64,000 nt of DNA from a virus. A model generated the notes under the pieces. It was not told where the DNA came from. It did not search any database and saw only the letters and a list, made by a program, of their open reading frames with translations. Below are positions 55,618-59,964 of this stretch, in pieces. Within the stretch, counting starts at the first letter, position 1. Each line of letters starts with the position of its first letter. The position numbers were made by a program, and so were the translations under genes. The stretch lies in the IMG/VR virus record IMGVR_UViG_3300017766_003354, positions 64,001 to 128,000 of that record, one strand, 5' to 3'.

Positions 55618-56496
55618 TTAAGTCAAAAAATCCTCTGGCTTCAAAACTCCCCCGCGAGACTTCATCTTTTCCTTTAGATCGTCCACGCCTTGGGAGGTTT
55701 TGCCAGTTTTCCCGTCTTTTTCATCATATTCAAGGATTTTTACGGGGTCTTTGGCGATGTTGTCTGGAATCGAAACGTTCTTGAATTTATTAAGAAGGGA
55801 ATTAGCATAGACCAACAGGTTCTTCTGGAAGACGGTTAAGCCTAGTCCTGCGTTCTTAAAAAGGACTTCTGGCTGCCTATAACTCAAAACAAAAAGCTCA
55901 AAGAAGGCCGTATTATAGGCAACATTAAGAATAAAGTTTTTGTCATTAAACTCTCCTATCTTCGAGAAACAAGCAATCGAATGTTCAAAAAATAAATCCT
56001 CATCAACTGGCTCCGAAAAACCTCTATCCTTAAAACATGTGGATTCAACAAGATATTTAATTCGACGGCTTTCGGAAAGATTTTCGGCGCTATAAGAGGT
56101 TATCTTTTTACGTTGTTCTTGAATGTCTTTGATGGCGTTTCTTTTAGCATCAATAGAAGCAAGAGCAGACTTCTTCATGTGCGCGTCCGACATCTTCTTT
56201 TCGGCCAAAATCATTTTATCAATTGTCCATTCGAGAGACTTGATCTCTTCTTCTTTCTGAATAGACCAAGATTTACGTTTGATGGCTTGTTCAATTAGCT
56301 CTTTTTCGCTTTTAATGCCTGATCGTTGGGCGTGGGCCAAAGCCTTATCATACTCTTCATCCATCTGAAGAGCGTCCAAAAGAGTAAAATGCCTAAAATA
56401 AAAATCGCGACCACTAGCGTTCAACACACTGTAGCCGCGATTAATATCAAGAAGTGCGGAGTTAGCTCTCTTTAGCAGTTTCTCCTGATCCTTCAT
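55618..56496 (-). CDS. pre-tape-measure protein (tail assembly chaperone-like)
   Basis: Position directly before the tape measure; helical and charged. Confidence 0.5.
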   Translation of the reverse strand: MKDQEKLLKRANSALLDINRGYSVLNASGRDFYFRHFTLLDALQMDEEYDKALAHAQRSGIKSEKELIEQAIKRKSWSIQKEEEIKSLEWTIDKMILAEKKMSDAHMKKSALASIDAKRNAIKDIQEQRKKITSYSAENLSESRRIKYLVESTCFKDRGFSEPVDEDLFFEHSIACFSKIGEFNDKNFILNVAYNTAFFELFVLSYRQPEVLFKNAGLGLTVFQKNLLVYANSLLNKFKNVSIPDNIAKDPVKILEYDEKDGKTGKTSQGVDDLKEKMKSRGGVLKPEDFLT

Positions 56497-57364
56497 TTGC
56501 TACTTCTTGGGAGTCTTCTACTGTCTCGGGTTCGTCTTTTGTTTGCTTTTTGTTTACAGTCGTTTGCTTTTCTTCAACAATTTCTTCCTCGCCGAACATT
56601 TCCTTGAGAGAGGCATCAATAGTTTCTTGCTTTTCAGCAATCTTATTATACCAAATGCTGGCGACTCGAACCAAAGTAGTAAACGCCGAATCAAACAAAG
56701 CCTTAGTCTTCAAAAGAGACGGATCTTCAATATCCTCAATAGATTCGCAGAGCGCCAAATAAACGCTTCTTTTTTCATCAAAAGTGTCGCCTGCAAAAAT
56801 AGGAAAGAGTTGTTTCTTTTCGCCAACTTCTTCTTCGTAAAAGGATTGATTAAAGACCAACCACTCAATTAACTTTTGCTCGGCCTTGGAATCAGCCGTT
56901 TGTGAGAACTGAGAGCGCATGATTTGCTCGTATTCCACGACTTGGCTCTTGGTATCCGCGAAAGTAAGTCGGGCTTCTTCTAGGGCGTTTTTCTGTTCTT
57001 CCGTCAAATCGGTTGCCTCGCCATAGAATTCGATTCTACGAGCAGCCTCGATATTGTCCACAATTGCTTTTTGCAGCCCTTCCAGAGACATCTTCGAAGA
57101 TAAACCACCCAAGTCGCCCATCTTTTTAGAGAGCATCGCTTTTGTCAAGAATCCCGCATTAATATATTCGTTGAACTTTTGACCATAGAAGAATTCCGCC
57201 TCTTCGATAACGGCCATTGATGGCTTTGCGAAACACACGCGAGTTTTTACGGTATCAACAATTGTTTTGGTTGATTCGATAGAAGAGCCGTCTTTGCCCT
57301 TCTTGAGAACGGGGACCTGTTTTTCGACTTTCTTTGAAACTGAGAAGCTGTAGATTTCTTTCAT
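56462..57364 (-). CDS. putative tail assembly chaperone
   Basis: Position between tail tube and tape measure; helical with an acidic tail; preceded by TTGAAT-N16-GATAAT. Confidence 0.5.
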   Translation of the reverse strand: MKEIYSFSVSKKVEKQVPVLKKGKDGSSIESTKTIVDTVKTRVCFAKPSMAVIEEAEFFYGQKFNEYINAGFLTKAMLSKKMGDLGGLSSKMSLEGLQKAIVDNIEAARRIEFYGEATDLTEEQKNALEEARLTFADTKSQVVEYEQIMRSQFSQTADSKAEQKLIEWLVFNQSFYEEEVGEKKQLFPIFAGDTFDEKRSVYLALCESIEDIEDPSLLKTKALFDSAFTTLVRVASIWYNKIAEKQETIDASLKEMFGEEEIVEEKQTTVNKKQTKDEPETVEDSQEVANEGSGETAKES

Positions 57365-57404: not shown

Positions 57405-57872
57405 TTATTCGTTAGGAATCAAGTAAAATCCATCAAAAGAGACAAGATATTCGAGATTTGAATCTTGAAGTCCGCTGGCAGTGTTAATAGTTGGAGGCTC
57501 TACATACTGAGATTTAATCCTCATTCCCATAGTAGAACTTCCGTATTTCTCAAATTCTATGCAATTAATTGGGCATATTATTTCAATATGGTTGGACATC
57601 AAAACTCCATCATAAAAATAACTAGCTCTCTCAAAATCAAAAGAATGAACTTGAACATTAAAAAGCTCGCCGCTTCTATAACCTCCAAAAAAGTTTCCAC
57701 TTTGGTCGAAAAGGTAGCCCCCAGATCCTCTAAAAGATAGGCCAGTAGTAAAATCCCCTGCACCAGTTCCGCTACCGAAGGCGAACGAAAAACCAGAAGC
57801 AGGTTCATTCACCCGAAATTCCAGATCGGCCACGAAGTTAGAATTAACGTGTGTTCCTGTATAGAATTTCAT
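57405..57872 (-). CDS. virion structural protein
   Basis: 155 aa, beta-rich; coupled to the upstream gene. Confidence 0.55.
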   Translation of the reverse strand: MKFYTGTHVNSNFVADLEFRVNEPASGFSFAFGSGTGAGDFTTGLSFRGSGGYLFDQSGNFFGGYRSGELFNVQVHSFDFERASYFYDGVLMSNHIEIICPINCIEFEKYGSSTMGMRIKSQYVEPPTINTASGLQDSNLEYLVSFDGFYLIPNE

Positions 57873-58702
57873 AGGCGGTCAAAAATAGAAAATTTATAAG
57901 AAAAATCAACTTTAGCATTACCCTCTAGATCCAACGATTCTGAGATACCGACTAAAGAAGAATTTTCAACTGAAAATATTTTAGCGTCTGAGCTATCGCA
58001 ATTAGAAAGAAAAATTTCAGTTATTCCTTTAGATAGCACGGGGACTTCAGACATTCCAGTGAGAACAGTTTTAAGAACTGAAAAATTCAAATCTCCGACA
58101 ATTGGAAACTCTGGATACCTAAACTTGGGAATCTTTTTGCCTAAAACTGCGGTAGATTTGCGACTTATAGGAAGAGTTAGTGTGAAGGACTGAATTGAAA
58201 AGTCTGTTTGATTCGTGATTCCTTCTCCGTAGTTGGCTATTTGGATTTTACTTGGGATAAATGGGGCAACCGAATCGCTGGTCTGAGAAGAATAAGTAAG
58301 TGCTCCAGTAGAACTCCATCTTTGTGAATTCGCTTCATAAGAAACAGATCCATTCACTAATTCTCCCACACCCGCCGAAATCTCATAAGAAGTAAGATAA
58401 GCTCCACTAATGGTTTCTGTCCCAAGCAAATCTTTCGCTTCGATATTAAATTTCTCAATAGAAACGACGCTGCCAGTCTTTATGTCAAAAAAGGGATCAG
58501 TCGTGCCGATTCCCATGGTCCAATTAATTGTGGCTTCGATTTTTGGCGCGTCTTTTGTGATACGATCATTCACATACAAAGTCCCCAGCCTAATAATATC
58601 ATCCGCTTGTGGATCTTTTGAAAAATCAAATTGGGATGCGCCAGTTAGACGTATCCCGTTGATTGAGATCTGAGTGTCGCTTGAATGAATACGAGGAATC
58701 AC
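57869..58702 (-). CDS. minor tail tube-like protein (paralog of the major tail protein)
   Basis: Shares YEISAGVGELV / YTANFAVGEIP and IQSFTLTLPISR..LG / IQSASVEVPLSR..LG with 58852..59964; GTG start 7 nt after GTGTAAA. Confidence 0.7.
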   Translation of the reverse strand: MIPRIHSSDTQISINGIRLTGASQFDFSKDPQADDIIRLGTLYVNDRITKDAPKIEATINWTMGIGTTDPFFDIKTGSVVSIEKFNIEAKDLLGTETISGAYLTSYEISAGVGELVNGSVSYEANSQRWSSTGALTYSSQTSDSVAPFIPSKIQIANYGEGITNQTDFSIQSFTLTLPISRKSTAVLGKKIPKFRYPEFPIVGDLNFSVLKTVLTGMSEVPVLSKGITEIFLSNCDSSDAKIFSVENSSLVGISESLDLEGNAKVDFSYKFSIFDRL

Positions 58703-58745
58703 AACAAGGTTTACACCTTTTACCCTCGATTGATTCGCCCCTTCC

Positions 58746-58779
58746 GAAGAAAGAGGCGGGGTGGGTTTCCTCGCCTCTT
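58746..58779 (-). terminator. intrinsic terminator after the major tail gene
   Basis: Minus strand AAGAGGCGAGG-loop-CCCCGCCTCTT followed by TCTTC. Confidence 0.7.
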
Positions 58780-58851
58780 AGATCAGGATTGGCTCACCAT
58801 TAAAGAGAATCGAATCTCCGTTGTATAGCAAGCCCTCTTCTTCTTCAGGGG

Positions 58852-59964
58852 TTAGGAGAAAGAACCTGTTGACGAACCAGACATAAAGAGGCCCGCGCTT
58901 GTGGTGTTCGCACCAGCGATCTGAGCAGAGAATGTAAGGTCAACAGTTTCATTATCATCCAAGCCGATGCTGAAGTTTTGACTGTCAAGAACAGCGTTCT
59001 TTAGAAGATAATGAACTTTATTAGCAGTTCCACCGCAACGGTCAGTTACCTGAATTGCGATATCGACACCCGCGCTGGCTGTGCAACCAGTCAGAACGGT
59101 TTGAAGTGTTCCTTCTTTGAAGTCGTCAACAATACCGTTGATAGAGCAGGTAACGTTAATTGGGAACTCAAGAGGCTTCGCGTATGGAAGCTCAGAACCG
59201 AGTCTTTCGATAGCTTGACGAGAGAGCGGAACTTCGACGCTTGCGCTTTGAATGTGGATACCAGAAAAGTTCGCTCCGCCCATGTCGATATTAGAACTAA
59301 AGCTAACGGCAACGTCACCAGCTTTGAGAACATCAACAGAGCTATCTCCAGTGCTAGGCTGAGGAAGAGTGAATGTCCCTGCAAGAGATTCGGCGGTCTG
59401 ACGATTTACAGCGGGGTTTTTACCAGTAGAACCAGTATAGAAAATGATGTTGCCGCATTCAAGTTCAACGTCGGCGCGAGGAATTTCTCCAACAGCAAAG
59501 TTGGCGGTATAGTTCGAAAGAGTCGCATTACCGAATCCGATGGTGGAGTGATTGGCGCGTTGGCTTGCGAAGTTAGCATCGAATGCATCAATACCTTCGG
59601 CAGTCGTTACAACATAGATATTCTTTTCTTTCTTATTTACGTCTTCAGACAGAACACCAGAAATGAACTGACTCACACCTCCGAAAGGAGTCGAAGCGAT
59701 ACCCTTAATATTAAACCCAAGATGTCCTTCATTTTCGCCGTCTGTCAGGTAATAACCAAAAGAAAGAGTAGGAGTAAGCTCGGACGCACGCACGGTAGCA
59801 ATACGAGCAAGCTGACCAAATTCACGAACGTCTTGTCGAGCGCCAGCGAGGTCGATATCGAAAGAAAGGGTGTCGATTCTGTGAAGTTGTGCGGGAGTAG
59901 TTACACTGCCTGTAGGAGAAGCATAAACGGCTTTGGACTGGGAAATGATGCGGGTTCTAGGCAT
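58852..59964 (-). CDS. major tail tube protein
   Basis: 370 aa, beta-rich; located between neck genes and chaperones; has its own GTGTAAA motif and terminator. Confidence 0.75.
   Translation of the reverse strand: MPRTRIISQSKAVYASPTGSVTTPAQLHRIDTLSFDIDLAGARQDVREFGQLARIATVRASELTPTLSFGYYLTDGENEGHLGFNIKGIASTPFGGVSQFISGVLSEDVNKKEKNIYVVTTAEGIDAFDANFASQRANHSTIGFGNATLSNYTANFAVGEIPRADVELECGNIIFYTGSTGKNPAVNRQTAESLAGTFTLPQPSTGDSSVDVLKAGDVAVSFSSNIDMGGANFSGIHIQSASVEVPLSRQAIERLGSELPYAKPLEFPINVTCSINGIVDDFKEGTLQTVLTGCTASAGVDIAIQVTDRCGGTANKVHYLLKNAVLDSQNFSIGLDDNETVDLTFSAQIAGANTTSAGLFMSGSSTGSFS

Follow-up and report, generated by a model that had tools for sequence, protein, structure and literature searches.

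The locus described here is the 3' end of a tail tube gene on the minus strand of an uncultured phage, in a stretch of 64,000 nucleotides (nt) that is referred to as the window (positions 64,001 to 128,000 of IMG/VR record IMGVR_UViG_3300017766_003354). The tube gene encodes 370 amino acids (aa) and closes with GGT (58866-58864) TCT TTC TCC TAA (58854-58852). In the -1 frame the same end reads TTT (58861-58859) CTC CTA ACC CCT GAA..., which translates to FLLTPEEEEGLLYNGDSILFNGEPILI and runs to a TAA at 58780-58778. A terminator-like hairpin follows, and beyond it lies a gene of 277 aa. The initial annotation of this DNA had described the gene end, the -1 reading and its stop accurately, positions included. 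The arrangement may represent programmed -1 ribosomal frameshifting over the final codons of the tube gene, adding a short C-terminal extension to the protein. Judged from the sequence, this is the explanation that we tentatively favour.

The tail tube gene and the open frame behind it

The tube protein was identified by its predicted fold. An AlphaFold model built with 38 homologues as input (predicted template modelling score 0.78) was compared with known structures using Foldseek, and matches 9iny (chain A), 8ed0 (chain A) and 5ngj (chain B) over its full length, with E ~1e-10, probability 1.0 and a template modelling (TM) score of ~0.6. These structures are tail tube proteins of T5, DT57C and P74-26. 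The sequence identity to the T5 pb6 / P74-26 type is only ~11%. For half of its length, the model also matches tube proteins with a single domain and Hcp proteins. On this model the protein is a pb6-type tail tube protein with two fused tube (Hcp-like) domains in one chain. Its role as the major tail tube is supported by the fold match together with the position of the gene upstream of that for a 2051-aa tape measure protein (PF10145), and the earlier label of the gene as 'tail tube' is upheld by the same fold match.

No Pfam or PHROGs hit was obtained for the tube protein when ten tail-module proteins were searched, and a tblastn comparison with 50,697 phage records gave no match, i.e. no homologue is detectable in isolated phages. 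The family to which the protein belongs is large, with 1,298 clusters at 50% identity in a profile search. Some of its members (P0143, P0220) carry in-frame C-terminal leucine-rich-repeat domains of the BspA type (LRR_5, LRR_4), and others have long unannotated C-terminal regions, with total lengths of up to 1,287 aa. In T5, pb6 assembles into trimeric, pseudo-hexameric rings, and its C-terminus bears a dispensable immunoglobulin (Ig) domain at the periphery, which some T5-like phages do without (PMC5717097). In this fold family, surface add-ons recur at the C-terminus; both the Ig domain of T5 pb6 and the in-frame leucine-rich-repeat domains are examples.

The -1 open reading frame (ORF) behind the tube gene of the window spans 53 codons from stop to stop, of which ~25-26 make up the extension. 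None of ATG, GTG or TTG precedes the acidic linker of the extension, as had been pointed out at the outset, and the sole start-type codon of the ORF, a TTG at GLL, would yield a peptide of just 17 aa. Since the frame has no start for it, the full peptide would need a frameshift, which also agrees with the initial proposal. In the window the -1 frame is open from the putative slip site, coding-like and lacking an initiation codon of its own. The motifs of the peptide occur nowhere else in the 146.9-kb genome.

The indications that this frame is coding-like are of two kinds. The linker is followed by two units of the form L-(Y/F)-N-G-(D/E)-x-I, which are real and are encoded by adjacent 21-nt repeats. 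The two repeat units differ at one of seven first, one of seven second and all seven third codon positions. If nine differences are placed randomly on 21 sites, one phase is saturated with a probability of ~1e-3 (our own calculation). Tandem 21-nt pairs with at least 12 of 14 matches at two codon phases are found ~0.9 times per shuffled window, counting both strands, and the two other such pairs in the window lie inside ordinary genes. The repeat is rated as beyond chance. Codon usage was scored with a table of log-odds values derived from 101 long ORFs of the genome. The -1 frame reaches +0.21 bit per codon. Among real in-frame windows this score ranks at the 67th percentile, and it is attained by only 2.4% of the off-frame windows that are free of stops (P=0.024). 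The other five frames score lower. Together, the wobble-biased repeat and the gene-like codon usage bear out the original impression of a non-random peptide.

The same arrangement in a second phage

A set of 218 further loci from viral, metagenome and genome collections provided 123 distinct stop contexts of the tube gene. The spacer between the tube gene and the next gene is almost always 62-75 nt long. A long spacer with an insert directly past the stop is present in two of the 123 contexts only, that of the window (149 nt) and that of a second virus, L003 (IMGVR_UViG_3300033067_002128; 144 nt), whose tube protein is ~60% identical to that of the window. In both, the insert consists of ~80 nt, is open only in the -1 frame and lacks a start codon. 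The frame relation thus agrees between two independent assemblies. The gene of L003 ends CGT TTT TTC TAA TAA, with two tandem stops, and its -1 frame reads FFLITPDESNNLLSSEGDTLISSDLLELSWS*. This frame opens just seven codons ahead of the stop, so any shift must take place at the heptamer T_TTT_TTC. The -1-frame peptides of the two phages align with a local score of 40 (shuffle P=4e-4).

The junction between the two frames, the place where a recoding signal would be expected, is marked by a conserved island (Table 1). On either side of it, over 60 nt upstream and 110 nt downstream, identity stays at the random level of 2-3 positions per 10. The two phages encode different C-termini here (STGSFS in the window, EKPRFF in L003), so protein conservation accounts only for the Phe codon and the stop. 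If these are left out, 16 of 21 positions are identical (P ~6e-6). The wobble positions of the -1 codons ACC CCT are also conserved. A junction probe with 17 specified bases, run against the viral collection, met a tube-gene context only in L003; its five other hits were chance matches in ordinary ORFs.

Table 1. Features at the 3' end of the tail tube gene (window coordinates; all on the minus strand)
Feature	Position	Strand	Remarks
Tail tube gene, 370 aa (P0001)	58852..59964	-	T5 pb6 / P74-26-type fused double tube domain, by predicted fold
Junction island	58842..58868	-	22/27 identical to L003 4190-4216, ungapped; P ~1e-8
Putative slip site T_TCT_TTC (0-frame GGT TCT TTC)	58858..58864	-	aligned base for base with L003 T_TTT_TTC
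-1-frame extension FLLTPEEEEGLLYNGDSILFNGEPILI and TAA	58778..58861	-	open frame, no start codon, codon usage
0-frame stop TAA	58852..58854	-	at the stop position of insert-less relatives
CCCCTGA	58845..58851	-	begins 6 nt past both heptamers; the +1 frame ends at its TGA
Repeat unit 1, CTA TAC AAC GGA GAT TCG ATT (LYNGDSI)	58808..58828	-	21-nt tandem repeat
Repeat unit 2, CTC TTT AAT GGT GAG CCA ATC (LFNGEPI)	58787..58807	-	21-nt tandem repeat
Hairpin (9 bp, 58777-58753) with T-rich tail	58745..58777	-	terminator-like; begins one base after the -1 stop
AGGGG	58738..58742	-	predicted to pair with the C-run; closes a long-range helix (with GAAGAAG/CUUCUUU) round insert and hairpin

Two other ways of reading past the tube stop were considered and rejected. 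Stop-codon read-through would enter a 0 frame that has poor codon usage after the TAA in the window and several stops in L003, and the +1 frame is closed by the TGA of CCCCTGA.

The 120 best homologues of the tube protein (51-87% identical) all end soon after a core of the form ...TFSAQIAG..T..AG.F.SG and have variable tails; the closest of them, P0002-P0007, are 80-87% identical. In both carriers the 0-frame stop falls where the insert-less relatives also stop, so the short product is ancestral. The extension does not form a folded domain of the Ig or fibronectin type III (FN3) type, as it has only 25-26 residues and is carried as a domain by no family member inspected.

The hairpin behind the insert was not flagged by a simple terminator scan, and canonical terminators are found at the equivalent position in relatives. 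The initial annotation had observed that the -1 stop fills the gap to the terminator exactly. This holds in the window, but in L003 15 nt separate the -1 stop from the terminator stem, so the abutment of stop and hairpin is not conserved. The C-run of CCCCTGA is predicted to pair with a downstream AGGGG in the folds of both phages. In L003 the C-run opens a 10-bp hairpin 6 nt past the heptamer (-12.6 kcal/mol, z -1.6), and in the window it is predicted to form only a long-range helix (z = -2.2), with 5 of 200 shuffled sequences folding as well. A purine run at the start of the insert, GAAGAAGAAGAG (58838-58849, minus strand), has its complement in the pyrimidine tail behind the hairpin, CUCUUUCUUC (58744-58755), and in the predicted fold this pairing closes a three-way junction round insert and terminator.

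A possible -1 frameshift and its alternatives

If the frameshift takes place, most ribosomes would stop at the 0-frame TAA and yield the 370-aa tube subunit, and a minority would slip back by one base on T_TCT_TTC. The slip would move tRNA-Ser from UCU to UUC, with a G-U pair in the middle position, and tRNA-Phe from UUC to UUU. Slippage of tRNA-Phe on U_UUC had been suggested originally; the aligned heptamers retain this step and suggest a tandem slip over the whole site, not one by tRNA-Phe alone. Shifted ribosomes would continue with CTC CTA ACC CCT GAA..., adding 25 residues (LLTPEEEEGLLYNGDSILFNGEPILI) after the shared Phe codon to give a product of ~394 aa. At its junction this product would read ...GSF-LLTPEEEE (...GSFLLTPEEEEG...), and GLLYNGDSILFNGEPILI would be a peptide derived from the extension. 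The extension would consist of the acidic linker and two hydrophobic-x-N-G-acidic units that resemble strand-turn-strand elements, and it would sit on the exterior of the tube, on the basis of an analogy with T5 pb6, whose C-terminal Ig domain is peripheral. No result supports the docking role that had been proposed for the peptide. By a different analogy, with the C-arm of 80alpha, it could act as a clamp on neighbouring rings.

A number of observations weigh against this interpretation. The open length of the -1 frame is by itself unremarkable: from composition, the chance that one frame stays open for 25 codons is ~24%, and at least 25 open -1 codons past the stop are found in 28 of 58 genes of the window, mostly by running into the next gene. 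Support must therefore come from other signs. The window heptamer T_TCT_TTC does not conform to X_XXY_YYZ, as had been recognised from the start, and is one C/T change away from the canonical site of L003. A shift on it calls for re-pairing of tRNA-Ser through the middle G-U pair, which we infer. The L003 heptamer, in turn, is about half expected from the conserved R-F-F end of its clade and a 63% preference for the codon TTT. Without the first six residues the similarity between the two peptides is not significant (P=0.36), nor is the codon usage of the -1 frame in L003 (P 0.13-0.17). The predicted stimulatory fold has z-scores of -1.6 to -2.2, with pairing partners and architecture that differ between the window and L003, and support from RNA structure is weak.

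The distribution of the insert also tells against a frameshift. The nearest relatives compared at the DNA level, L130 (79% identical to the window) and L001 and L002 (80% to L003), are without it, so the insert is dispensable and patchy, with two carriers only. The peptide is present in frame in none of the 120 best homologues and in none of the 159 family tails from the profile search, and a comparison of the 53-aa -1 ORF with longer proteins among 5.8 billion gave two word-sharing candidates, neither of which scored; no in-frame fused form was found. The comparison with homologous tail genes that the initial annotation had recommended thus has a mixed outcome, with a homologous start-less -1 ORF in L003 on the one hand, and insert-less near relatives and no fused form on the other. 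Relatives lacking the peptide had been named beforehand as counting against the proposal and, as the nearest ones compared at the DNA level do lack it, the case stays open.

Several of these points would be expected if the ~80-nt piece were an unexpressed remnant, now silent spacer but once coding, either as an earlier addition to the C-terminus or as a gene fragment that had been captured. Sister lineages without the insert, a non-canonical heptamer in the window, the missing fused form, an insert body diverged to non-significant similarity and the indifferent codon usage of L003 all fit such a history. However, saturated silent DNA should not retain an island of 22/27 identities exactly at the frame junction, and the same -1 frame would be open in both lineages with a probability of ~0.24 squared by composition. 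A repeat that diverges at wobble positions, combined with gene-like codon usage, is also unexpected in a remnant, and we consider this explanation unlikely, although it deserves to be taken seriously. Alternatively, the open frame may be incidental to a functional non-coding RNA or DNA element at the end of the tube transcript, which could affect terminator efficiency, affect RNA stability or processing, or bind a protein. The position of the insert directly upstream of the terminator is consistent with this, as are the C-run/AGGGG pairing in both phages and the inclusion of the wobble positions of ACC CCT in the conserved island. The region as a whole also folds better than shuffled sequences (z -2.2 in the window, -4.6 in L003 including its terminator). 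Yet a search of Rfam gave no match for the region, the pairing partners and the architecture are not the same in the two phages, and 121 of the 123 contexts do without the element. RNA structure also leaves the 3-nt periodicity of the repeat divergence and the gene-like codon usage unexplained, and a non-coding element seems decidedly improbable to us.

Chance, meaning intergenic DNA with one frame open by accident and a fortuitous likeness in one relative, would be in keeping with the unremarkable open length, the small number of carriers and the discovery of the patterns after the fact. It is contradicted by the probability calculated for the island, with or without the Phe codon and the stop, by the rarity and phase of the repeat and by the codon usage; moreover, the only two long spacers among the 123 contexts share all these properties. 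We regard it as very unlikely. An assembly indel near TCTTTC, or in the T6 run of L003, would make the true gene a single frame of 396 aa. The site in L003 is a homopolymer, and one extra T there would fuse the frames, but the run in the window is only T3 and the same -1 relation occurs in both assemblies. The 0-frame stop also stands at a position conserved in insert-less relatives, L003 has two tandem stops, and the search for a fused homologue gave none, which leaves an indel scarcely credible. The plus-strand frame (…IRIGSPLKRIESPLYSK…) is open across the insert as well and could encode a small antisense peptide. It shares its wobble sites with the -1 frame, which also tells somewhat against the coding interpretation of the latter, and in it the repeat reads IGSPLKR / IESPLYS. 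On the other side, this frame has no ATG or GTG and its first TTG leaves ~21 codons. In codon usage it resembles non-coding sequence (a score as good is reached by 33% of stop-free off-frames), the changes between its repeats are non-conservative (G/E, K/Y, R/S), and its similarity to L003 is weaker than that of the sense frame. We attach next to no weight to an antisense peptide, and chance, indel and antisense ORF remain improbable even when taken together.

A more elaborate version of the frameshift interpretation would give the shift two jobs. A fixed fraction of the subunits of a T5-type trimeric tube would carry a short strand-turn-strand arm, and shifted ribosomes, which in the window would stop one base before the hairpin, would mask the terminator, so that read-through into the tail genes downstream would be coupled to the frequency of frameshifting. 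As its recoding signal, the shift would use the non-canonical U_UCU_UUC heptamer, the conserved 6-nt spacer and the C-run. We hold this combination to be highly doubtful.

Known recoding systems and neighbouring features

Frameshift-extended tail tube proteins occur in a few Gram-positive phages, in which the shift adds carbohydrate-binding Ig or FN3 domains. The -1 shift of T7 gene 10A/10B, the subject of work by Condron et al. in 1991, reportedly uses the site G_GUU_UUC and depends on distal 3' sequence. In SPP1, a +1 shift at CCC_UAA gives gp17.1*, with an additional 87-aa domain of the FN3/Ig type, at a ratio of short to long product of 3:1 (PMC6316719, PMC8718954). The major tail proteins (Tsh) of the Listeria phages PSA and A118 are also extended by frameshifting, as cited in one source (PMC5221750). 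As with gp17.1 and gp17.1*, recoding in the window would affect the final codons of the major tail tube gene and give two products with a common N-terminus. In the SPP1/Listeria type the extension can be dispensed with and is exposed on the tube (PMC6316719, PMC8718954). The precedent drawn from these phages in the initial annotation is sound in that their major tail proteins are extended by frameshifting, but those shifts are +1 and add folded domains (PMC6316719, PMC5221750), unlike the putative -1 shift described here, which would add 25 residues to a pb6 double-domain tube.

Examples of -1 frameshifting are closer in direction. They are cited for head and tail proteins of Lactobacillus phage A2 in the same source (PMC5221750), and a 21-aa -1 extension of the major head protein has been proposed for phiEf11, which its authors call speculative (PMC5221750). 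The heptamer of L003, T_TTT_TTC (UUUUUUC), is the one proposed for the shift between the SPP1 chaperone proteins 17.5 and 17.5* (PMC6316719). The window resembles T7 10A/10B, A2 and phiEf11 in that its candidate -1 slip lies a few codons short of the stop, in a structural gene of high expression, and is followed by a stem-loop; the payload of phiEf11 is similarly short. These three systems, however, have canonical slippery runs, from which T_TCT_TTC is one base off, and none involves a T5-type tube protein.

Among tube proteins, T5 pb6 and P74-26 have the same fold, with two fused tube domains in ~370 aa. The add-on of T5 pb6 is an in-frame Ig domain of 85 aa, whereas that of the window would be an out-of-frame peptide. 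The C-arm of 80alpha gp53 is a short C-terminal tube extension, which folds against the outer sheet of the adjacent ring (PMC8718954). It is in frame and present on every subunit, in contrast to the minority product of a putative frameshift, and the likeness comes from analogy only.

That major tail genes can be recoded at their end is already established; what would be new here is the pb6-like tube, the 25-aa peptide payload and the heptamer. If the frameshift is real, frameshift-extended tubes would extend to a T5-type double-domain tube in an uncultured phage lineage, and the payload of such a shift could be a 25-aa peptide instead of a domain. T_TCT_TTC and T_TTT_TTC would then form a natural pair of near-canonical and canonical sites with a conserved spacer, useful for the study of slip-site tolerance. 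Short recoded tails of this kind escape gene callers. If the frameshift is not confirmed, the 27-nt island at the stop codon still calls for explanation.

The 277-aa gene after the terminator (57869..58702, minus strand) codes for a diverged tube-protein paralogue; the two are 27% identical over a stretch of 128 aa (E 1e-8). The paralogue stops right at the tube core and may be the counterpart of the T5 tail-tip ring proteins, which also hit the tube model. It is context, and lies outside the recoding unit. Three related viral contigs contain the core motif VDLTFSAQI twice, ~1,257 nt apart (L187, 12118-13400; L192, 3452-4734; L211, 3249-4550), which suggests tandemly duplicated tube genes. Upstream of the tape measure gene, two genes of 300 and 292 aa (55618-57364, minus strand) overlap by 35 nt. 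No in-frame X_XXY_YYZ was found in this pair when it was searched as a reference frameshift; the second ORF is in the +1 frame and has its own ATG, and there is no evident sign of the usual G/GT chaperone -1 frameshift. No tRNA genes were found in the window.

Phage contigs of this lineage also occur inside bacterial metagenome-assembled genomes (MAGs) labelled Saccharibacteria, Flavobacteriales and Flavobacteriaceae (L130, CAZDRR010000001.1; L131; L132). The 139-kb contig deposited in a MAG is probably a mis-binned phage genome, and the Flavobacteria labels may hint at the host. Across the family (loci L001-L218) the spacer has a common layout, consisting of the stop, a terminator hairpin, a T-run and, 10-15 nt ahead of the next start, a conserved GTGTAA(T/A)A(T) motif (58705-58725 in the window). 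From its sequence, this motif resembles an extended -10 promoter element or a different type of conserved start signal.

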